From a bacterium (lineage in GTDB: Bacteria; Desulfobacterota; Deferrimicrobia; Deferrimicrobiales; Deferrimicrobiaceae): a stretch of 24,000 nucleotides of DNA. Position numbers and translations under genes: made by a program. Positions 3,925-12,555 of this stretch are shown here, piece after piece (the stretch's first letter is position 1; every line of letters starts with the position of its first letter). Under the pieces are notes generated by a model that saw nothing but the letters and a program-made list of their open reading frames with translations, was not told the origin of the DNA and made no database searches. The stretch is taken from positions 1 through 24,000 of the forward strand of contig JBBAAD010000001.1 of NCBI GenBank assembly GCA_041658505.1, written 5' to 3'.

Positions 3925-4386
3925 CTACGGAGTGATGGTCACCGTCACCGAGTCCGAGTACGCCCCCACGGAAACGTTCTGGCCGGGGGGGATCCGCCCG
4001 TAGATCGTCGTGGTCACCGGCCGGTTCCTGTTGACCTTCCTGAGCAGGACCGTCGACGTCCCCGCCGAACCGTCCCCCCAGACCGTCGTCATCGATGCCG
4101 TGGTGAAGAGGTTGTAGTTCATCCGGTCCGCCTGCGACGTGTGTCGCATCTGCCGCGGTTGGAACCCCCCGGACGTGGGGCTGGGCCCGATGGAGATGGT
4201 GACATCCGTCGGCGGGTTCCGGTCACACGCCACGGTCACCGTTCCCGCGGTGTCACGGGGCACCGCCGCGAACACGTCGTAGGCCCCGAAGTTGATGCCC
4301 GTGGTCGTCACCCCGCACGCGGCGTGCGCCGCATTCCCGAGGATCAGACAGAGCAGCCCCACGAGTCCCTTACCGAACGTCTTCAC
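3925..4386 (-). CDS. spore coat protein U (SCPU) domain pilus subunit lacking the N-terminal donor strand (candidate tip/cap subunit)
   Basis: The 153-aa product has a signal peptide ending AHA|AC. The SCPU pattern is present: C..INFGAYD, a second Cys in VTVACD, and the C-terminal GAYSDSVTVTITP. The GTG start overlaps the usher stop by 17 nt. Confidence 0.85.
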   Translation of the reverse strand: MKTFGKGLVGLLCLILGNAAHAACGVTTTGINFGAYDVFAAVPRDTAGTVTVACDRNPPTDVTISIGPSPTSGGFQPRQMRHTSQADRMNYNLFTTASMTTVWGDGSAGTSTVLLRKVNRNRPVTTTIYGRIPPGQNVSVGAYSDSVTVTITP

Positions 4387-6757
4387 AGGTCAGCCTCCCC
4401 AGATCGACGATCATGTCGTCCGTCGCGGGAACGGTCATCTCGAAGAGGCAACGTTTCCCTTCCTGTTCCACGTAGGCCGCATGGGTCCCGGGGCCGAGAT
4501 CCTCCACATAGAACTCCCCCCCTTTTCCCGTCGGGAATGCAATCTCCCTCCCTTCCGCCGGCACCCGGACCTCGACGTACTCCGCCGGTTTCCATTCGCC
4601 GTCCCGCCGCATCCCCAATGTGCCGGTAACGGCCTGGATCCGCTTCACCTCGAACGGAATCCGCGACCCGCTCCGGAGCGGGGGGGAGACCACCTTCAGG
4701 ACCTCCCGGAGAGAATAGTCGATGGGAACGTCCTTGTCGGCGATGGAGATCTGGTTCTCGTAGTACGAGCCGAGGGACGGCAGGAACAGTTTTCCCCGTC
4801 CGTCGGTGCGCCCCATCTCCTGGTTGTTATGGTACACCCGGATGCCATCGAGCCCTCCCACCGTGACGAGCCCGAAGCTGTCCGTGATCGGGCGGCTGAA
4901 CCCGAAGGTGTCCCCGACGAAGGCGACCCCCCCATACGCGGAGAGCCGGACGAGCCCGTTTCCTCCACCCCCGTCGATCCTCTCCCCCCGGTACTCCGCC
5001 GCATAGGAGCCGAACCGGGCGTTGTACTGCAAGGACGGGTTCACCGCGGTGGAGGAAAGCGCCGTGGAGTCCATCCGCTCGACCGAGACGTTGTACCCCC
5101 ATCCCTCCCCCGCGGGCAGGTTCTTCCGTGCCTGCACCGTCTCGTTGCGGACGCCGCCCGCCTCCCGGTAACTCGCTGCGAGCGACAAGTTGCCTCCCGG
5201 GTAGTAGTTCACCCCCAGCATGAGCTCGTTGACCGTCTCCCCCTCCCGCATGTTCCGGAACGAACCCAGCACGCTCACGTTCCATCCGATGTTCCGGGAC
5301 CAGGACGCCCCGATGGTCCGCCGGTCCGTCCCCGTGTGCCTCTTCAGGAAGTCCGCATCGACGGAGAACGTACCCATCCGCGGCGTCCCGTATCCCGCGC
5401 CGGCGGCCACCTCGTACCGTACGCCGTCCGTGGAATCCCGCCCCTCCTCCGCTGCGACCGCGTACGCGCGGCTCACCCCCTTGAGGAAGATCCTCGTGCT
5501 GACGGCCCCGCCCTGGAAGGAGTGCGTCGCCTCGCCGGCCGCGCCGAGGCGCCCGTCCCGCCGGGCGCTTCCAGCGAAAGAGAGGGCGACGATTCCCGCG
5601 TCGCCGACGCGGAAGGCCGCCTGCGGGCCCAGGTTCGCCCCGTCCCCGGTGCCTTCCCCCCGCCCTCCCAGCGTCACCCGGCCGCTTAACCCGTAATTGT
5701 GGAACGCGGAGAAGGCGATCGGGCCGTACCGGTCGCTCTCTTCGCCGAACTTCCTCCGGAGGAAGCCGACGTTGTAGCTGTATTCATGGAGTCCCTTCTC
5801 GAGAAGGGTCTCGGCGAAGTAGAACGGGTAACGGATCCTCTGCTCCCTCCCGAACGGGTCCTTGATCACGACGGTCACGTCGCTCCGGCCGCCGAGCGAG
5901 GAGATGTTCTTCAGCTCGAACTGCCCCGGGGAAAGTTTCTCCGTGCGGATCCGCGTGCCGCCGAGGTACACCTCCGCCTCGGACGGCAGGGACACCATCC
6001 CCCCGACATTGGCCAGCGGGTAGCGAAGAAAATAGGGGTCGATGCGGTAGACCTTGGAGAAGCCGACCCCGCCCAGGTTCACGCCGGTCCCGAGGCCGCC
6101 CGAGGAGGCGGTAATGTCTCCGAACACCAGCCGCTGCATCTTTTCCCGCCGGTCGCGGGTCACGTTCGTCGAAAGCCGGACCAGGCGTTGGTCCGCGCGG
6201 GTCTTTTCGAAGGCGGCGTCGGAAAGGAAGAGGAAGTCCCCGCGGCGGGCGCCCACCTGGCCGGTCACATCCAGGCTCTCCGCATCGCCCGGGTCCCCGC
6301 CCGTCCAGGTGATGCCGTAGTTGAAAAACCCGGAGGGGTCTTTCGGGTAGAGAACCCGGGGCTGACGCGGCGGACGGAAGTCGACGACCCGCATCGGCAG
6401 GACGGACGGGTGGGCCGCCAGCTCAAGAGAGAGGGTCTTTTCCCGGAACGCGAACGACATCTTCTCCAGCGATCGGAGCGATCGGTGCGGTTCTCCGTCG
6501 ACCTCCGTCGTCCGTCCCGGGGGCACGGAGAGGCCCATCGCCGCGAGGTCCGCCGTTCGGACGAGGAAATCCCCGTCCTCGAGGAGGCGGACGAGGAAAT
6601 CCCCCTTCTCTTCGCCGTTCAGGAAAACCTTCACGTAGAACAAGTCGGCGCACCGCGCCGCGGAGGGAAGGAAGAGGAGGCCCAGGAGCAGGGAGAGGAG
6701 GAGCGGAGCGCGGCGGCGGGCGGCCGGATGCGGTGTCCGTCCCCTCACGGACCGCAC
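4370..6757 (-). CDS. fimbrial outer-membrane usher (CsuD-like)
   Basis: The 795-aa product has a signal peptide and the N-terminal usher pattern FYVKVFLNGEEKGDFLVR...DLAAMGL. The long beta-rich body has many aromatic-x-aromatic strands. It lies between the chaperone and a pilin gene and overlaps both neighbours. Confidence 0.9.
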   Translation of the reverse strand: MRSVRGRTPHPAARRRAPLLLSLLLGLLFLPSAARCADLFYVKVFLNGEEKGDFLVRLLEDGDFLVRTADLAAMGLSVPPGRTTEVDGEPHRSLRSLEKMSFAFREKTLSLELAAHPSVLPMRVVDFRPPRQPRVLYPKDPSGFFNYGITWTGGDPGDAESLDVTGQVGARRGDFLFLSDAAFEKTRADQRLVRLSTNVTRDRREKMQRLVFGDITASSGGLGTGVNLGGVGFSKVYRIDPYFLRYPLANVGGMVSLPSEAEVYLGGTRIRTEKLSPGQFELKNISSLGGRSDVTVVIKDPFGREQRIRYPFYFAETLLEKGLHEYSYNVGFLRRKFGEESDRYGPIAFSAFHNYGLSGRVTLGGRGEGTGDGANLGPQAAFRVGDAGIVALSFAGSARRDGRLGAAGEATHSFQGGAVSTRIFLKGVSRAYAVAAEEGRDSTDGVRYEVAAGAGYGTPRMGTFSVDADFLKRHTGTDRRTIGASWSRNIGWNVSVLGSFRNMREGETVNELMLGVNYYPGGNLSLAASYREAGGVRNETVQARKNLPAGEGWGYNVSVERMDSTALSSTAVNPSLQYNARFGSYAAEYRGERIDGGGGNGLVRLSAYGGVAFVGDTFGFSRPITDSFGLVTVGGLDGIRVYHNNQEMGRTDGRGKLFLPSLGSYYENQISIADKDVPIDYSLREVLKVVSPPLRSGSRIPFEVKRIQAVTGTLGMRRDGEWKPAEYVEVRVPAEGREIAFPTGKGGEFYVEDLGPGTHAAYVEQEGKRCLFEMTVPATDDMIVDLGRLTCEDVR

Positions 6758-7527
6758 ATCGACCGGTCAACGACCATGCGTCCGCGTAGGGAGAGCTTGT
6801 CGGTTTTCACCTCCGCCTCGATGACCGCCATCGTTCCGCACGTCTCGGGGGGGGCGGTCGTCGTGTACCCTCTGGAGACGCCGGCAAGGAGGTACCACCC
6901 GCTCAACTCCCGGGAGAAGATCTCTTCGCCCGCCCCGTTTCTCCCCCGCACGAGGACGGACTGGACGACGAAGTGGACGTTCCCCGTGTTTTTCACGGGC
7001 ACGAGGAGCGCACCGGCGGACATCGTCATCGCGCCGACCTCCCCGCGGACCTCCTCCTTCAACGGCTTGACGAAGATCGGCACGCCGAACCGGATGGCGA
7101 CGGCGACGTTCACCCCCTCCGCCTTCCGGGGCCCGGGGATCTCCTCGATGAAGAGGCGGAACGTCTTCTCCTTCGACACCGCCGGGACCCGGATCCCCGC
7201 CCGCAGGATCTTCTCTTCCTTCCGCTCCAGGATCATCAGCCGGGGGAAGAAGAGGATCTCGCCGGTCTCCTCGTACCGGTCCTTCCCCTCCGCGTCCTGG
7301 GTCCACTCGTACGCCTTCATCTGGACCTGCAGCCGGTCGTCCGAATCGTTGGCGACTGTGACGGCCCCGCTCTTCGCGTCGCGCCCGAGGTCGAGCCGGA
7401 TGGGCGACACGCGCCAGTCGCCGGCCCGGGCGGCAACGGGAAGCAGGAGCAGGAAAAGGAAAACGGTCGCGGAAGACCGGCGCGCGATGCGCACGGCCCT
7501 CCCATCCTCGGGACGTTTCATAGGCAT
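6745..7527 (-). CDS. pilus periplasmic chaperone (PapD/CsuC-like)
   Basis: This is the internal part of track ORF 6745..8262. The product begins MPMKRPEDG...FLFLLLLPVAARA|GDWRVSPIRLDL...AVTVANDSDDRLQVQMKAYEW...FRLFIEEIP...AIRFGVPIFVKP, a two-domain PapD-like pattern. The start is ambiguous (ATG at 7527, 7521 or 7563) and no strong SD is present. Confidence 0.87.
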   Translation of the reverse strand: MPMKRPEDGRAVRIARRSSATVFLFLLLLPVAARAGDWRVSPIRLDLGRDAKSGAVTVANDSDDRLQVQMKAYEWTQDAEGKDRYEETGEILFFPRLMILERKEEKILRAGIRVPAVSKEKTFRLFIEEIPGPRKAEGVNVAVAIRFGVPIFVKPLKEEVRGEVGAMTMSAGALLVPVKNTGNVHFVVQSVLVRGRNGAGEEIFSRELSGWYLLAGVSRGYTTTAPPETCGTMAVIEAEVKTDKLSLRGRMVVDRSMCGP

Positions 7528-7577
7528 CACTATACAGAAGCGGTCCGGGGGACGGCAACCCATGCGAGGGTCGGAAG

Positions 7578-8678
7578 CTACATCGTCCGGACGGAAACCT
7601 GGAGGGGCCAGAGATACGTCCCGGGACGGGCGTCCCAAGCCAGGGAGAACCGGTAACTCAACTCCGCCGTGACCGGCGCGGGGGCGTACGGGTGCGGGAC
7701 GAAACCGCCTCCCGGCCCGATCTCCACGTCCCGTCCCAACCCCCGGACGGAGACCCTGCCGAACGGACCGTCGGGGCCTGCGACTCCCTCGAAGACGAGG
7801 AGGCATCCCTCCCGGCTGTTGTTCCGGACCTCGATGCGGGAGGCCGCGGGAGCGTCGACGTACCCGCGCGCGACGTCCTCCGGGGTCACGACCAGCGTCC
7901 GCTTCTGGTGAAGGACCCGCAGCGTGGCCCGCGACGGAACCGTGGCCGTCACCTGGATCCGCGCGGTTCCCGCCGCCGGCGGACCGCTCGCCCCTCCGAC
8001 CTCCTGCGCTCCGGCGACCTCCGCAAGCGAGAGCACGGCGACGAGGGCGGCGGTGACCAGCATCTCCTGGAGGCGGAGACCGCGGTCGAGGTGGTGGGGC
8101 TCGACCGCCCCGCTTTCCACCAGCAGTTCGCCGATGTTCTTCTTCGTCAGCTTCTGGCGAGAGAGGACATCTTCCAGCTGCTCCCGCGTGATCCGTCCGG
8201 TGGCGACCAGGATCTCCCCGAGGCGGAACCGGACCGACGAGGGGGCCTCCCCGGCCTGGCACTTCTGGAACGCGAGGACGGCGTCGAGCTGGCCCCGGGT
8301 CAGCACGCCGCGCCGGACGAGAATCTCCCCGAGCTTCTCGCCGGTCCGGCGCTGCTCCGAAAGCGCCTCTTCCAGCTGTGCCGGGGTGACTTTCCGAGCC
8401 TTCAGGAGCAGCTCCCCGAGGTACTGGCGGACCCCCGCCGCCGACCGGACGGCGTCTTCGAGGGAGGCGAGGTCGCTCTGGATGGAGACCACGGCGGCGA
8501 TCTCCGCCGGGTCCGCCGCCTTCATGCGGATCAGCACCTCGCCCAGCATCTCGTTGGTCCGGTTCTGCTCATCGAGCGCCCGAGCCAGATTCCCGGGGGA
8601 GACGAAACCCCCATCCACCAGCACCTGGCCGAGCAGCCGCTTCGCCGGGCGACCCGGCGGCACGTTGTCCCTTCGCAT
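7578..8678 (-). CDS. membrane protein with three tandem MshEN/T2SSE_N-like units, one TM helix and a periplasmic beta-rich (pilin-like) domain
   Basis: The 366-aa product starts at an ATG preceded by GAGGGGA (4-nt spacing). It has no signal peptide and no Walker A. Three 53-aa units lie at aa 15-67, 86-138 and 152-204. A hydrophobic segment spans about aa 206-224 and a C-terminal domain spans aa 225-366. It is on the same strand as the pilus genes and embedded among them. Confidence 0.8.
   Translation of the reverse strand: MRRDNVPPGRPAKRLLGQVLVDGGFVSPGNLARALDEQNRTNEMLGEVLIRMKAADPAEIAAVVSIQSDLASLEDAVRSAAGVRQYLGELLLKARKVTPAQLEEALSEQRRTGEKLGEILVRRGVLTRGQLDAVLAFQKCQAGEAPSSVRFRLGEILVATGRITREQLEDVLSRQKLTKKNIGELLVESGAVEPHHLDRGLRLQEMLVTAALVAVLSLAEVAGAQEVGGASGPPAAGTARIQVTATVPSRATLRVLHQKRTLVVTPEDVARGYVDAPAASRIEVRNNSREGCLLVFEGVAGPDGPFGRVSVRGLGRDVEIGPGGGFVPHPYAPAPVTAELSYRFSLAWDARPGTYLWPLQVSVRTM
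8067..8636 (-). repeat. three tandem 53-codon MshEN-like coding repeats within the 7578-8678 gene
   Basis: The units map to 8636-8478, 8423-8265 and 8225-8067. Each is a 24-aa half-motif, a 5-aa spacer (NRTNE, RRTGE, KLTKK), then a 24-aa half-motif ending in Q. The best match is RLGEILVATGRITREQLEDVLSRQ. Confidence 0.7.
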
Positions 8679-8770
8679 CCGTCCCCTCGCGCGAGCGGAA
8701 TCTTCCCGCCCTTGACGCTTCTATCGGCCGCGCAGGCGGAAATGTTCAGTAACCGTTTGGGAGAGGAGAG

Positions 8771-8787
8771 TCCCCCGGATCGGGGGA
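8771..8787 (-). promoter_or_regulatory. GC-rich intercistronic hairpin downstream of the pilin genes
   Basis: TCCCCCG-GAT-CGGGGGA is a 7-bp stem lying 15 nt 3' of the stop of pilin gene 8802-9356. No U-tract follows it on the minus strand. Confidence 0.4.
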
Positions 8788-8801
8788 AGGAGTCGCTTTG
8801 G

Positions 8802-9356
8802 TCACGGAAGGATCGAAACGATCACCGAATCCGTGTAGGCCCCGGCCATCGATCCGCGGAAATCCACCCAGCGGACGGTCCCCGAGATGGTGAGGGTGCC
8901 GGGGGCGTTTTTCGGGATGGTGCCGGAGGCGGGGCTCAGGAGAAGAGAGTACGGGAGGAACTCCGGCGCGGCGGCGTGGCGCATCCGGCGGGCGCCGGGG
9001 CCGGACGGGTTCTGTCCGTTATCGTCCGTGAAGAGGAACGCGGCGACCGGCGCGCTTCCCCGGCAGACGAAGTCGACGGAGGCCGTCGCGTTCACGTCGG
9101 CCGCGACGGCCGGGTCGAGGGCGCCGAAATTCAGCGTCGAGGTCTTCGTGTCGAACTTGCAATTGCTCTTCGAGAGCACCGTCGCGGTGACGGCAAGCGT
9201 ACCCGTATCTCCGAAAGCCGCCGTGCCGGCCCACGCAAGCAATGAAAGTACGACAAGCACAACGGCAAGAACCGGCGTCGATCCCTTGCCGGCGCCGGAA
9301 CGGCGCGGGGCGGCCGGTTGGCCGCCCCGCGTCGCAGATGATTCCCCGCGGGACAT
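8802..9356 (-). CDS. SCPU-domain pilus subunit (second pilin)
   Basis: The 184-aa product has a long charged N-region followed by a hydrophobic signal segment. The mature part is DTGTLAVTATVLSKSNCKFDTKTSTLNFGALD...FVCRGS...GAYTDSVIVSILP, which shows the SCPU pattern plus a donor strand. No clear SD precedes the ATG at 9356. Confidence 0.82.
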   Translation of the reverse strand: MSRGESSATRGGQPAAPRRSGAGKGSTPVLAVVLVVLSLLAWAGTAAFGDTGTLAVTATVLSKSNCKFDTKTSTLNFGALDPAVAADVNATASVDFVCRGSAPVAAFLFTDDNGQNPSGPGARRMRHAAAPEFLPYSLLLSPASGTIPKNAPGTLTISGTVRWVDFRGSMAGAYTDSVIVSILP

Positions 9357-9371
9357 CCAGGGCGTGCGTTG

Positions 9372-9836
9372 TTATGGAGTGATCGAAAGCGTGACGGTGT
9401 CCGAGTAACTTCCTGCGGCCTTCGAGGTGTAATCGGCCGCCAGGACGGAGCCCGCGATGTTCAGCGTGCGGGGCGAGGCAGGGCCTGCGTTGGCGCCAGC
9501 TACGGGCGTGAGGGTCAGCGAATAGGGGATAAGATCCGTACTGACGCTGTCCCTCATTTGCCGTATCGCCCCGGCGGGATTCAGACCCACGTTCGCGGTA
9601 ATGAGATCCGTGGTCACACCCTTCGTGCACCAGAACTGGGTGCTGGTGGAACCGTTGACGGCCACCGGATTCGAGGGATCCAGCGCGCCGAAGTCCAAGG
9701 TGGAAGTCGCGGTGGAGAACTTGCACGTCCCAAGCACGCTCGCCTGCACGGTCAAGGTGTTGGTGTCGCTGGCCCACGCCGCGCCGCCCGCGGCGAGCAC
9801 CGCGAGCGCGATGAAAACCGAAATGCTTTTCCTCAT
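9372..9836 (-). CDS. SCPU-domain major pilin candidate (CsuA/B-like)
   Basis: The ATG at 9836 lies inside track ORF 9372..10301 and is preceded by GGGGGAAG. The product begins MRKSISVFIALAVLAAGGAAWA|SDTNTLTVQASVLGTCKFSTATSTLDFGALD...FWCTKG...GSYSDTVTLSITP. It is the first gene of the operon. Confidence 0.88.
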   Translation of the reverse strand: MRKSISVFIALAVLAAGGAAWASDTNTLTVQASVLGTCKFSTATSTLDFGALDPSNPVAVNGSTSTQFWCTKGVTTDLITANVGLNPAGAIRQMRDSVSTDLIPYSLTLTPVAGANAGPASPRTLNIAGSVLAADYTSKAAGSYSDTVTLSITP

Positions 9837-9875
9837 GACTTCCCCCGTTTCTTTTCCCGGCCGATGCCGGATTTT

Positions 9876-9881: not shown

Positions 9882-10012
9882 TCCACCACCCGTTTCGGTC
9901 GGTTCCGAAAAAAACTTTAAGGAAAAATTCAGGCAAGAAACCGTTTGTCCGGCACACGCGGTTGTCATAGGCTGAAATCGCACGCGTCGGACCGCGACGC
10001 AGCGGGGACACC

Positions 10013-12555
10013 ATGGGCGACTGGCACCGGCGGGAGATCGCGGACGTCGTTCGGGAGCTTCGGACCGACCCCGGGTCCGGGCTGACCGGCGCCGAGGCCG
10101 CGTCCCGCCTTCGCGCGAGCGGCCCCAACGAACTCCCCGAAGGCCCCCCCTTCGCCCCGGACGCATCTTTCTCTCCCAGTTCGCTTCCACGATGGTGGCG
10201 GTCCTCCTTGCGGCGGCCGTCGTCTCCGCGCTGCTGGGCGACCTCTTGGACACCGTCGCGATCGTCGCCATCGTCCTCCTGAACGCGCTGCTCGGCTTCA
10301 CCCAGGAGTACCGCGCGGAAAAGGCGATGGCGGCGCTGTCGCGCCTTGCCGCCCCCGTGGAGAAATCCCCCGATCCGCTTCCCGATCCCGACCTGCCCGT
10401 CGGCGACCGGCGGAACTCCCTTTACCTCGGCACCACCGTCGTCCACGGGCGGGCCATGGCCGTGGCGACCGGCACCGGCCGGGACACCGAGCTGGGACGG
10501 ATCGCGCGGATGCTCTCCGAGGTGCGCCGCGAGGCGACGCCGCTCCAGCGCCGGATGGCCGATCTCGGCAGGAACCTGGCGCTGCTCGCGCTCGCGATCG
10601 TCGCCCTCATCTTCGGAATGGGGCTGTTGCGGGGAGAGGACCCCGTGCTGCTGTTTCTCACCGCCGTGAGCCTCGCGGTCGCCGCGATCCCGGAGGGGCT
10701 GCCGGCCGTGGTGACGGTCACCCTGGCCCTCGGTTCGCAGCGGATGCTGGCGCGCCGCGCCCTGATCCGGAAGCTCCCGGCCGTGGAGACGCTCGGCTCG
10801 GTCACCGTCATCTGCTCGGACAAGACGGGAACGCTCACCCGGAACCGGATGGACGTCTCGGAGATCCTCTCGGCGGGGAGGCGGATCGTCTTCACCGCGG
10901 ACGCCCCCGCGCCGGAATTGCCGTCCCCCCATGTCCTCCTCGCGGCGGCGTGCGCCCTCTGCAACGACGCGGTCCCCCCGGCGGCGGGCGGATCGACCCC
11001 GCTGGGGGATCCCACGGAGATCGCCCTCCTTGCCGCCGCCGCGGGGGCGGGGCTTTCGAAGGAAGCGCTGGAGCGGTCCTTCCCTCGCGTCGCGGAAGTT
11101 CCCTTCACCTCCGAGCGGAAACGGATGACCACCGCGCACGCCGTGTCCGCGGGCGGGATCCCCCTGGCCGACGTATCGGACCCGGGCCTCTCCGCCGTTT
11201 TCCCGAACGTCGCCGGCGCCGCCGGGTTCGTCGTGACGAAGGGGGCCGCGGACATGCTGCTCCCGCTATGCGTCGCGGAGTGGACGGAACGCGGCGTCCT
11301 GCCCCTCGCCCCTGCCGGCCGGGAGCGGATCCTCGCGGAGAACGCGGCGATGGCGGGGCGCGGCCTGCGGGTGCTCGGCGTCGCCTTCCGGACATTGGCG
11401 AACGCCCCCGCGGGAGTGCCCGCGGGCGAACTGGAGGAGGGCCTCGCCTTCCTCGGGCTGGTGGGGATGATCGACCCGCCGCGTCCCGAGGCGGAACAGG
11501 CGGTGCGGACGTGCCGCGCCTCCGGGATCCGCCCGATGATGATCACGGGGGACCACCCGCGGACCGCCCTCGCCGTGGCGCGATCGCTGGGGATCGGGGG
11601 AGACGACACGGTGGTCACCGGGGCGGAGCTCTCCCGGATGACCCCCGGCGAAATCGCGGCCGTCGTTCGGCAAACCGACGTCTACGCCCGCGTCTCCCCG
11701 GGGCACAAGCTCGCCATCGTGTCGGCGCTCCAGGAGGACGGGCACGTCGTCGCGATGACCGGGGACGGAGTGAACGACGCCCCCGCGCTGCGCAAGGCCG
11801 ACATCGGCGTCGCCATGGGAGACAGCGGGACCGACGTGGCGCGGGAGGCGGCGGACATGATCCTCACCGACGACAACTTCGCCACCATCGTCGCCGCCGT
11901 CGGGGAAGGCCGGGTCATCTACGACAACGTGCGCAAGTTCATCCTCTACATCCTCGCCAGCAACGTCGGGGAGATCCTCGTGATGTTGCTGGGCCCCCTT
12001 CTCGGGATGCCGCTGCCGCTTCTCCCGCTGCAGATCCTCTGGATCAACCTGCTCACCGACGGGTTGCCGGCGCTGGCGCTTGGGGTGGAGCCGGCGGAGG
12101 GCGACGCGATGCGCCGCCCGCCGCGCTCTCCGTCGGAGGGCGTGCTGACCCGTGGAGCGTGGGCGTACGTGCTCGGGGTCGGCGCGCTGCTCGGGATCTT
12201 GTGCCTCGCGGTGGCGCTCCCCCTGTACCGGGCGGGGGACCCGTCGTGGCGGACCGCCCTCTTCACCGCCCTCACGCTCGCCCAGATGGCGCATGTCCTC
12301 GCGATCCGCTCCAGGCGGGAGACGCTCTTCCGCCGCGGCATCTTCACGAACCTCCCGCTTCTCCTCGCCGTGGCCGGCACCGTGCTCCTGCAGCTGGCGG
12401 TGGTGTACGCCCCCCCGCTGCAGGGGATCTTCCGCACCGTCCCCCTTCTCCCGGGTACGCTTGCGCTGTGCGCCGCCGCGAGCACCGCGCTCTTCTTCGC
12501 GCTCGAGGGAGGAAAATATGTCGTCGGTCTTGCCCGCGGACGTTCGCGCGAATAG
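10013..12555 (+). pseudogene. P2-type cation-transporting P-type ATPase, frameshifted at a C7 run and lacking the TGES actuator segment
   Basis: A Cation_ATPase_N-like start (LTGAEAASRLRASGPNELPEG) reads in one frame from 10013, and the remainder reads in another frame to 12555. The motifs [41 protein letters not shown] and MTGDGVNDAPALRKADIGVAMG are all present. No TGES motif is present. Pseudogene status depends on the homopolymer length being correct. Confidence 0.6.

Follow-up and report, generated by a model that had tools for sequence, protein, structure and literature searches.

A three-module MshEN_N protein in an archaic chaperone-usher pilus operon as a candidate c-di-GMP-responsive accessory factor

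Overall architecture of the protein

We analyzed a 24,000-nucleotide stretch of DNA (hereafter the window) from a bacterium of the Deferrimicrobiaceae (assembly GCA_041658505.1, contig JBBAAD010000001.1, positions 1 to 24,000), and focused on a gene at 7578-8678 on the minus strand encoding a protein of 366 residues. The protein comprises three MshEN_N modules, a hydrophobic helix, a linker and a β-sandwich domain, and its gene lies inside an archaic (sigma) chaperone-usher (CU) pilus operon. Based on the observations described below, we suggest, with a probability of about 0.55, that it is a form of a periplasmic factor accessory to archaic CU pili that responds to c-di-GMP (cyclic diguanylate) and places this factor under direct c-di-GMP control. 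CU pili are textbook machines that work without a cytoplasmic or inner-membrane component and without energy input, and the c-di-GMP control of CU pili known to us is transcriptional. The initial annotation of this DNA knew of no description of post-translational c-di-GMP gating of CU pilus assembly; likewise, our full-text searches found no paper linking MshEN to CU or SCPU systems, and no description was found for archaic CU systems with inner membrane, MshEN with transmembrane or periplasmic, SCPU with c-di-GMP, or Ralstonia SCPU. What appears to be new is the MshEN_N architecture together with an unannotated accessory family of archaic CU operons, both proposed here entirely from sequence. 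The features of the gene are as follows.

7578..8678, minus strand: focal gene, 366 residues, (MshEN_N)x3, hydrophobic helix, linker and predicted periplasmic β-sandwich domain (open reading frame list and translation; NF053729, 156.9 bits; AlphaFold2 (AF2) model, mean predicted local distance difference test (pLDDT) 83)
8478..8636, minus strand: MshEN_N unit 1, residues 15-67 (NF053729 for the unit alone, 50.1 bits, matched residues 16-67)
8265..8423, minus strand: MshEN_N unit 2, residues 86-138 (NF053729 for the unit alone, 71.5 bits, matched residues 87-138)
8067..8225, minus strand: MshEN_N unit 3, residues 152-204, membrane-proximal (NF053729 for the unit alone, 56.0 bits, matched residues 151-201)
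8007..8063, minus strand: hydrophobic helix MLVTAALVAVLSLAEVAGA, residues 206-224, signal anchor or internal cleavable signal peptide with AGA at -3 to -1 (sequence; comparison with unfused homologues)
7947..8006, minus strand: low-complexity linker, residues 225-244 (AF2 pLDDT <50 for 226-244; poorly conserved)
7581..7946, minus strand: predicted periplasmic β-sandwich domain of an unannotated family, residues 245-366 (122 residues; AF2 pLDDT about 90)

The MshEN_N modules

When we searched the whole protein with the NCBIfam model NF053729 ('c-di-GMP_motif, MshE-related', 53 positions, cutoff 38 bits), three stretches were matched with a combined E-value of 7.5e-47, and each unit also exceeded the cutoff alone, so that the three 53-residue units first read by eye from the sequence are real by this model. 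Each unit consists of two half-motifs of 24 residues separated by a spacer of exactly five residues (residues 15-38/44-67, 86-109/115-138 and 152-175/181-204). Unit 3 had been thought to fit the motif best, but by hidden Markov model score unit 2 is the best, and unit 3 leads only at the Arg position. Among sequences of solved structures, the best match is Thermus thermophilus PilF with its three GSPII domains (6f8l, E=1.8e-11), followed by Vibrio cholerae MshE-N (5htl, E=1e-5); unit 2 aligns with residues 6-61 of MshE in 5htl and with GSPII-B of PilF. Secondary matches in NCBIfam were to the NfrB and EpsG models. The AF2 model, computed from a 30-sequence alignment, contains four helices in each unit with pLDDT values of 83-93; it was used in place of a single-sequence model, which was set aside at a pLDDT of 42.6. 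Neither MshE nor PilF was among the matches returned by a Foldseek search against the PDB. Based on the sequence matches, we consider the repeats to be true MshEN_N-type modules whose homology is firm.

The gene does not encode a full MshEN/T2SSE_N protein of the ATPase type. The Pfam models for T2SSE_N (PF05157), proposed earlier as a check of the assignment, and for the T2SSE ATPase gave no match at E<=1, which bears out the previous reading that an ATPase domain is lacking. The negative T2SSE_N result fits the presence of the 53-residue N-subdomain only, and the PilB model TIGR02538 matches positions 2-50 only. We found 417 homologues of the protein, and the best 120 of these are mostly full-length (at least 95% of the query) with 52-100% identity, plus a few N-terminal fragments. 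An artefact of gene fusion or frameshift was rejected, since hundreds of independent contigs carry the architecture in full length.

Predicted binding of c-di-GMP

All six half-motifs retain Leu2, Gly3, hydrophobic residues at positions 6 and 7, Leu, Ile or Val at positions 17 and 21, and Gln24; among 30 family members, 28-30 have Gly3. Units 1 and 2 had been described as partly degenerate, with Gly replaced by Lys or Arg and the leading Arg missing, and closer inspection confirms this. Gly10 is replaced in two halves, by K53 in motif II of unit 1 and by R95 in motif I of unit 2, and Arg1 is found only as R152 in motif I of unit 3, where it is conserved in 28 of 30 members. At the same position, K115 (half II of unit 2) and N181 (motif II of unit 3) fall inside the published relaxed motif, and L15, M44 and Y86 fall outside it. 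Unit 1 has no Arg1 in either half but retains Leu2, Gly3 and Gln24 in both, and half I of unit 2 has neither Arg1 nor Gly10.

The isolated 53-residue MshEN_N binds c-di-GMP by itself (Wang et al. 2016, PMC5013675). In MshE, loss of Gly3 abolishes binding and mutation of the hydrophobic positions costs more than 10-fold in affinity, while mutations of Arg9 and Gln32 change the affinity less than 5-fold; Arg1 of the half-motif stacks on guanine (PMC5013675). In PilF, GSPII-B and GSPII-C bind c-di-GMP, while GSPII-A is non-binding and bound only when the motif-II Arg and both Gln residues were restored (PMC12002112). XpsE is another non-binder (PMC5013675). We counted the motif residues in the membrane-proximal unit of 55 representative fused proteins (clusters).

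Arg or Lys at position 1: motif I, 40/55; motif II, 45/55
Gly3: motif I, 53/55; motif II, 55/55
Gly10: motif I, 47/55; motif II, 53/55
Gln24: motif I, 52/55; motif II, 53/55

Among these representatives the membrane-proximal unit is the most canonical one, and it is under clear purifying selection for the full motif. Because the published mutagenesis points both ways, with MshE tolerating Arg and Gln changes and GSPII-A of PilF not, binding is given as a prediction for each unit, with unit 3 the likeliest to bind, unit 2 a possible binder and unit 1 a doubtful one.

It is also conceivable, though improbable in our estimate, that the repeats are too degenerate to bind c-di-GMP and serve as a cytoplasmic scaffold or oligomerization domain, or bind another partner, for example in the manner of PATAN/DUF4388-like protein-interaction modules. 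Arg1 is missing in four of the six half-motifs by this count and Gly10 is replaced in two; moreover, the near-consensus GSPII-A of PilF fails to bind (PMC12002112), as does XpsE (PMC5013675). In addition, the Pfam model DUF4388/PatA_N matches residues 143-219 (8022-8252, minus strand), which cover unit 3 and the first part of the hydrophobic helix, with 32.4 bits against a cutoff of 25; this Pfam model could itself contain an MshEN_N-like segment. On the other side, each of the six half-motifs retains Leu2, Gly3, Gln24 and the Leu17/Leu21 cluster, which are also conserved family-wide, the MshE mutations at Arg9 and Gln32 have an effect of less than fivefold (PMC5013675), the membrane-proximal unit is clearly selected for the full motif, and all three units lie above the cutoff of a curated c-di-GMP-motif model.

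The C-terminal domain and its family

In the AF2 model, residues 251-365 form a β-sandwich with a pLDDT of about 90. The domain carries two conserved motifs, D-[IV]-x-R-G-Y-V-[DE] and P-G-x-Y-x-W-P, and its strongly conserved polar residues (D268, R271, N287, R343 and W357) look more like those of a binding site than of a fibre subunit. It has no match in Pfam, in NCBIfam or, by profile search, among the PDB sequences. A word-indexed search with the C-terminal half gave mostly fragments; the exhaustive profile search was informative and, among 1.84 billion representatives, found 1,423 clusters of 50% identity with E<=1e-3. With about 1,400 clusters, the domain makes up an unannotated family that is predicted to be periplasmic. 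When we inspected the best 150 representatives, the following forms were found, and none carried an N-terminal domain type other than MshEN_N.

0 MshEN_N modules (signal peptide and domain): 90/150, about 160 residues
1 MshEN_N module: 25/150, about 250 residues
2 MshEN_N modules: 16/150, about 325 residues
3 MshEN_N modules: 19/150, about 365 residues

Suspecting a divergent SCPU pilin by eye, we compared the domain with a profile of 118 SCPU pilins using hhalign, and this candidate was rejected at a probability of 0.6%; the Pfam SCPU model gave no match to the domain even at E<=10. Homology with the chaperone or the usher was likewise rejected by profile-profile comparison. These results bear on the quite improbable alternative that the domain is a pilus subunit, namely a terminator, anchor or adaptor which is tethered to or released from the inner membrane and added by donor-strand exchange. 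By gene order, the gene does occupy the place of the third minor pilin in Csu/CupE-type operons. The weak Foldseek matches of the domain include the CU pilins Caf1 (probability 0.98) and CfaB (0.94), and by eye its N-terminal V-T-A-T-V strand and C-terminal G-x-Y...V-S-V motif resemble SCPU termini, although hhalign finds only the C-terminal motif of 15 columns. Besides the negative profile comparison, several features argue against a subunit: no solved Csu pilin is among the 50 Foldseek matches listed, the modelled sandwich is confident and complete without a partner strand, the conserved polar residues suggest a binding site, and in Betaproteobacteria the gene is usually on the strand opposite to the operon.

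Topology and the hydrophobic segment

Three observations support an N-in/C-out topology with a periplasmic C-terminal domain, as the initial annotation had predicted. First, the flanks of the hydrophobic segment contain 2.4 Lys/Arg residues on the N-terminal side versus 0.8 on the C-terminal side, in fused and unfused members alike. Second, domain-only homologues have ordinary Sec signal peptides at the equivalent position. Third, a relative described below carries a cytochrome c segment in place of the domain, and c-type haem is attached in the periplasm.

The same annotation called the protein membrane-anchored, and this is not established. The segment is laid out as DRGLRLQE / MLVTAALVAVLSLA / EVAGA|QE with an uncharged stretch of only 14 residues, and it has a positive n-region, an h-region within 7-15 residues and small residues at -3 and -1, as signal peptides do, and may be cleaved. 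In hydrophobic length and in the -3/-1 residues it is indistinguishable from the signal peptides of the unfused relatives, as the following comparison indicates.

Hydrophobic length, median: fused, 16-18; unfused, 17
Small-x-small frequency: fused, 94-98%; unfused, 94%
AxA frequency: fused, 43-75% (43% in 3-module forms); unfused, 68%
Linker to the domain: fused, 15-21 residues; unfused, 12 residues

Among the features compared, only the linker length differs. Since the segment is short, ends in AGA and matches the cleavable signal peptides of the unfused relatives, we do not endorse an anchor; equally, the segment could be an internal signal peptide that is cleaved to release the domain as in these relatives. 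An internal translation start at M206 was rejected, as most relatives have Lys at this position. In the AF2 model a single continuous helix (residues 194-226) runs from the last helix of unit 3 into the hydrophobic segment and is followed by disorder (226-244). Q204 had been described as running straight into this helix; the continuity stood, but E205 comes in between and the segment begins with M206. The motif-II Gln is separated from the hydrophobic stretch by 1-2 residues in 75 of 90 fused proteins, and therefore the ligand site would be held rigidly against the membrane helix.

These features raise a further alternative, a gated-export precursor, which we regard as possible but on balance unlikely. 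Here signal peptidase I would free the β-sandwich, and the array would act only before or during export, through c-di-GMP-dependent folding beside the n-region that affects targeting, insertion, cleavage or stability of the precursor. The 14-residue uncharged stretch ending in E-V-A-G-A|Q-E, the equal hydrophobic length and small-x-small frequency of fused and unfused forms, and the plainly Sec-secreted unfused relatives are consistent with it, as are the fixed spacing of 1-2 residues that sets the ligand site against the n-region, the same cassette in front of an exported cytochrome, and a locus where fused and free copies stand side by side (both described below). On the contrary, the longer linker of the fused forms (15-21 versus 12 residues) is expected of a tether, AxA falls to 43% in the 3-module forms, and a long continuous helix in the AF2 model is typical of an anchor. 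We also know of no precedent for a ligand-gated signal peptide, which counts against this alternative.

Assembly and portability of the fusion

The membrane-proximal units of 1-, 2- and 3-module proteins show 45-48% identity to each other versus 33-37% to other units, which marks the membrane-proximal unit as orthologous among them. In 3-module proteins, the middle unit is the counterpart of the second unit of 2-module proteins, and the outermost unit is closest to the middle one. This pattern of identity indicates that the array grew stepwise towards the N-terminus. In a close orthologous operon of Ca. Deferrimicrobium sp. (locus L006, plus strand), a 3-module fused gene (9962-11098) is followed by an unfused paralogue with signal peptide and domain (11282-11869), before the chaperone gene.

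In locus L048 (3423-4628, plus strand) of the Desulfuromonadales metagenome-assembled genome (MAG) JAENWA010000102.1, the (MshEN_N)3-helix cassette precedes not the pilus-linked domain but a multihaem cytochrome c segment. This segment has three CxxCH motifs and scores above the Pfam cutoffs for Paired_CXXCH_1 (30.4 bits) and Cytochrome_C7 (26 bits). It follows from this fusion that the cassette is portable and precedes exported domains. A more general reading, which we hold only tentatively and consider rather unlikely, is that the (MshEN_N)n-hydrophobic-helix cassette serves as a portable export leader gated by a second messenger, in which c-di-GMP bound near the n-region of an internal signal peptide would decide on insertion, cleavage and release of the downstream domain, a CU accessory factor here and a multihaem cytochrome in the Desulfuromonadales relative.

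Two other loci have three MshEN_N modules and no domain behind them. The gene in L038 (9917-10648) ends just after the hydrophobic helix, and that in L060 (8835-9482) ends before any helix and is overlapped by an open reading frame of 595 residues in a different frame. Truncation, frameshift or another architecture may account for these cases.

Linkage to chaperone-usher operons and distribution

The six-gene cluster at 3925-9869 runs on the minus strand in the order SCPU, SCPU, focal gene, chaperone, usher, SCPU. With three SCPU genes, PapD_N and Usher on one strand, it is an archaic CU pilus operon of the Csu/CupE-like kind. The earlier placement of the focal gene between two pilin genes and the chaperone on the same strand is confirmed by the Pfam matches of the five neighbours; the strand, not given before, is minus.

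9372..9869, minus strand: SCPU-type pilin gene 1 (Pfam SCPU, E=1.3e-13)
8802..9356, minus strand: SCPU-type pilin gene 2 (Pfam SCPU, E=1.7e-11)
6745..7527, minus strand: PapD-like periplasmic chaperone (Pfam PapD_N, E=2.2e-14; chosen start MPMKRPEDG)
4370..6757, minus strand: outer-membrane usher (Pfam Usher, E=6e-21)
3925..4386, minus strand: SCPU-type pilin gene 3, after the usher (Pfam SCPU, E=1.1e-29)

We then examined 80 genome loci with the window's own CU proteins as queries. Of the 68 domain genes that allowed a judgement, 61 adjoin usher or chaperone genes; 13 further genes could not be judged. The nearest CU gene is at a median distance of 26 bp, and the linkage extends over Deferrimicrobia, Syntrophorhabdia, Geobacteraceae, Nitrospirota, Acidobacteriota and many Betaproteobacteria, with the genes arranged in several orders. 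Domain-only genes are linked in 16 of 17 judgeable cases. The association of homologues with CU loci that the initial annotation anticipated is therefore upheld, but the linked element is the C-terminal domain and not the MshEN array, which is lacking in 90 of the 150 best representatives.

Genes with three modules are mostly inside the operon and on the usher strand (19/23), whereas most of those with 0-2 modules face the other way, convergent or divergent (7/38 on the usher strand). This contrast is confounded by phylogeny; in Betaproteobacteria the domain gene is usually on the strand opposite to the operon. The pattern is compatible with an accessory factor that is regulated separately and becomes co-transcribed once it is under its own post-translational control. 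On a megaplasmid of the cultured plant pathogen Ralstonia pseudosolanacearum (NZ_CP051172.1, 2986-8420, plus strand; L084), the order is SCPU-SCPU-chaperone-usher-SCPU-X, where X is the unfused domain as a sixth gene. Unfused members also occur in cultured strains of the Ralstonia solanacearum complex and in Trinickia, Paraburkholderia and Burkholderia, all annotated as 'hypothetical protein', and Massilia glaciei has a 2-module form (L045).

Proposed mechanism

The core of the family would be a Sec-exported β-sandwich of about 120 residues encoded beside SCPU pilin, chaperone and usher genes. In the lineage of the focal protein, one to three MshEN_N four-helix bundles would have been added stepwise on the cytoplasmic side of the signal sequence. 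The last helix of the membrane-proximal bundle, predicted to bear the LxxxLxxQ half of the ligand site, would run almost directly into the membrane helix. Binding of c-di-GMP by the array, most probably by the membrane-proximal unit, may then alter the amount of periplasmic domain available to a partner in the pilus pathway, either because a tethered protein changes its conformation or oligomeric state or because the domain is inserted or released. The outcome would be a direct protein-level input of the second messenger to the pilus system, in the manner of the inside-out signalling of LapD. This model starts from the domain identities, topology, family-wide fusion pattern and synteny described above; from these we infer the ligand binding, the tethering or cleavage, a target in the periplasm and either promotion or blocking of piliation by c-di-GMP. 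The gating of pilus assembly by c-di-GMP that had been suggested at first would be a further inference of the same kind.

Here, we need to consider several points that weigh against this model. First, a single-pass helix relays conformational signals poorly unless the protein oligomerizes, and constitutive cleavage by signal peptidase, if it occurs, would uncouple the two halves after export. Second, no GGDEF or EAL genes were found among the major open reading frames of the window that were scanned. Third, 4 of about 80 loci contain a total of five GGDEF genes (Pfam E<=1e-38) at a distance of 0.2-4 kb from the domain gene (L013 10255-12069; L047 12228-14084; L055 5597-8451; L058 11200-12132), but their use as support for local c-di-GMP signalling was rejected. 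Their frequency is not above chance by a rough estimate, because genomes with tens of such genes would give as many. Fourth, seven loci, mainly from Nitrospirota, have no usher or chaperone within 6-10 kb (at least 6 kb on both sides), although in one of them (L034) SCPU pilin genes are still 33 bp away. Fifth, the Foldseek matches that might indicate the function of the domain are all weak (E>1e-3) and include FlhE, Caf1, CfaB and carbohydrate-binding modules. Finally, the Arg1 needed by GSPII-A of PilF (PMC12002112) is absent from units 1 and 2, and motif II of unit 3 has N181 in its place.

The architecture is symmetrical as to the direction of signalling, so that the periplasmic domain might conversely sense pilus assembly or the state of the envelope and alter the capacity of the cytoplasmic array to bind c-di-GMP or a partner, informing the c-di-GMP network; MshEN_N arrays could conceivably buffer or hand over c-di-GMP. 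We consider this outside-in direction very improbable. The cytoplasmic side has no output domain, and most family members have no cytoplasmic part at all, and therefore the ancestral function would be periplasmic without signalling to the cytoplasm.

Should the preferred model of an accessory factor under direct c-di-GMP control be correct, up to three MshEN_N receptors on the cytoplasmic side and a CU-linked domain in the periplasm would give the CU pathway a direct second-messenger input at the protein level, and MshEN receptors would have a role outside type II secretion, type IV pili and polysaccharide synthesis. Such a finding would be surprising for both the c-di-GMP and the pilus fields. 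The signal-peptide-like membrane segment and the cytochrome fusion also raise the testable possibility of ligand-gated protein export; a gated leader, if real, would be a ligand-controlled signal sequence and the first known cytoplasmic checkpoint for CU pilus biogenesis. Independently of c-di-GMP, the domain family points to an overlooked sixth gene of archaic CU operons that is present in Ralstonia solanacearum, Burkholderia and Paraburkholderia, and thus open to study in cultured organisms.

Comparison with known systems

V. cholerae MshE-N (5HTL) shares with the focal protein the 53-residue module, made of two 24-residue motifs and a 5-residue spacer; this module forms a four-helix bundle in MshE-N (PMC5013675) and is predicted to have four helices in the focal protein. 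However, the focal protein has neither the MshEN_C/T2SSE_N1 subdomain nor an ATPase, and its module is triplicated and followed by a membrane helix and an exported domain. Supplementary Table 4 of Wang et al. includes (MshEN_N)2, CheX, AAA_31, Peptidase_M23, REC and other architectures, and the focal architecture is absent from it (PMC5013675). T. thermophilus PilF (6F8L) resembles the focal protein in its triple array, whose domains are unequal in binding, B and C being competent and A not (PMC12002112). PilF has full-length GSPII domains and is a soluble ATPase of type IV pili, whereas the focal protein has N-subdomains only, is predicted to be Sec-inserted and belongs to a CU system.

MshEN-type modules on membrane or envelope functions are also found in Escherichia coli NfrB and Methylobacillus EpsG, which belong to envelope polysaccharide machinery, and in an MshEN_N-Peptidase_M23 protein of Acaryochloris; Peptidase_M23/NlpD domains act outside the cytoplasm. 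The outputs of these proteins are a glycosyltransferase, a tyrosine kinase and a peptidase, and none is linked to CU pili. In LapD of Pseudomonas fluorescens, binding of c-di-GMP in the cytoplasm governs the action of a periplasmic domain on an adhesion system, and the focal protein might work alike. The resemblance is only functional: LapD is a dimer with a degenerate EAL domain, a HAMP domain and two transmembrane helices, while the focal protein has MshEN_N bundles and one signal-peptide-like helix, and no LapD-type domain (degenerate EAL/GGDEF, HAMP or LapD periplasmic domain) was found in our Pfam and NCBIfam scans of it. MrkH of Klebsiella pneumoniae is a c-di-GMP-dependent activator with a PilZ domain that controls the mrk type 3 fimbriae, which are CU fimbriae. 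It acts on transcription as a soluble DNA-binding protein, whereas the focal protein has no DNA-binding domain and is predicted to be inserted in the membrane.

The Csu system of Acinetobacter and CupE of P. aeruginosa share with our operon the SCPU pilins, the PapD-like chaperone, the usher and an SCPU gene after the usher. To our knowledge, their operons have no gene with the β-sandwich domain of the focal protein and no cytoplasmic or inner-membrane component. FlhE (4QXL), from a flagellar export operon, is the best Foldseek match of the C-terminal domain (probability 1.0; TM-score 0.50 normalised to FlhE; E=4.9e-3; root-mean-square deviation 5.8 Å; 16% identity), but it has no sequence relationship to the domain and serves as a lead only. 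It is a small Sec-exported periplasmic β-sandwich accessory of a surface-appendage machine (PMC11247099).

Additional observations on the loci

Several loci showed arrangements of their own. The 3-module copies of Nitrospirota are often orphans among DUF72, PGK, lipoate ligase and aminotransferase genes (L016 9962-11224; L033 9956-11053; L001 2690-3805), with no CU genes within 6-10 kb, and in L001 and L003 genes for a multihaem cytochrome and for a PAS histidine kinase lie nearby. In Polaromonas and Ramlibacter, two or three unfused paralogues are clustered beside the CU operon (L077 9863-11496; L081 9863-11486; L083 2688-4592); the two copies in L077 and L081 are in tandem on one strand, and the middle one of the three in L083 is on the opposite strand. 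Family members are also present on contigs binned as a Methanomicrobiales archaeon (L079) and as Actinomycetota (L049), which probably reflects mis-binning or frameshift errors. The L049 gene is divided over three frames within a normal SCPU-chaperone-usher cluster.

The database record of the identical protein is a hypothetical protein of a Deferrimicrobiota-type MAG. The open reading frame of the focal gene begins with ATG and is preceded by a Shine-Dalgarno-like GAGGGGA, and promoter and terminator scans of the operon were uninformative. The remainder of the window is chromosomal housekeeping, with genes for an aminotransferase, atpB/atpE, a P-type ATPase, an Ada-like protein, uvrA, pdxA, SurA-like PPIases and mfd. 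In the P-type ATPase, a Cation_ATPase_N domain (E=2.8e-9) at 10013-10282 on the plus strand lies in another frame than the gene at 10192-12555 (plus strand), whose start it overlaps, and this change of frame looks like a frameshift, either of a pseudogene or from an error in the MAG assembly.

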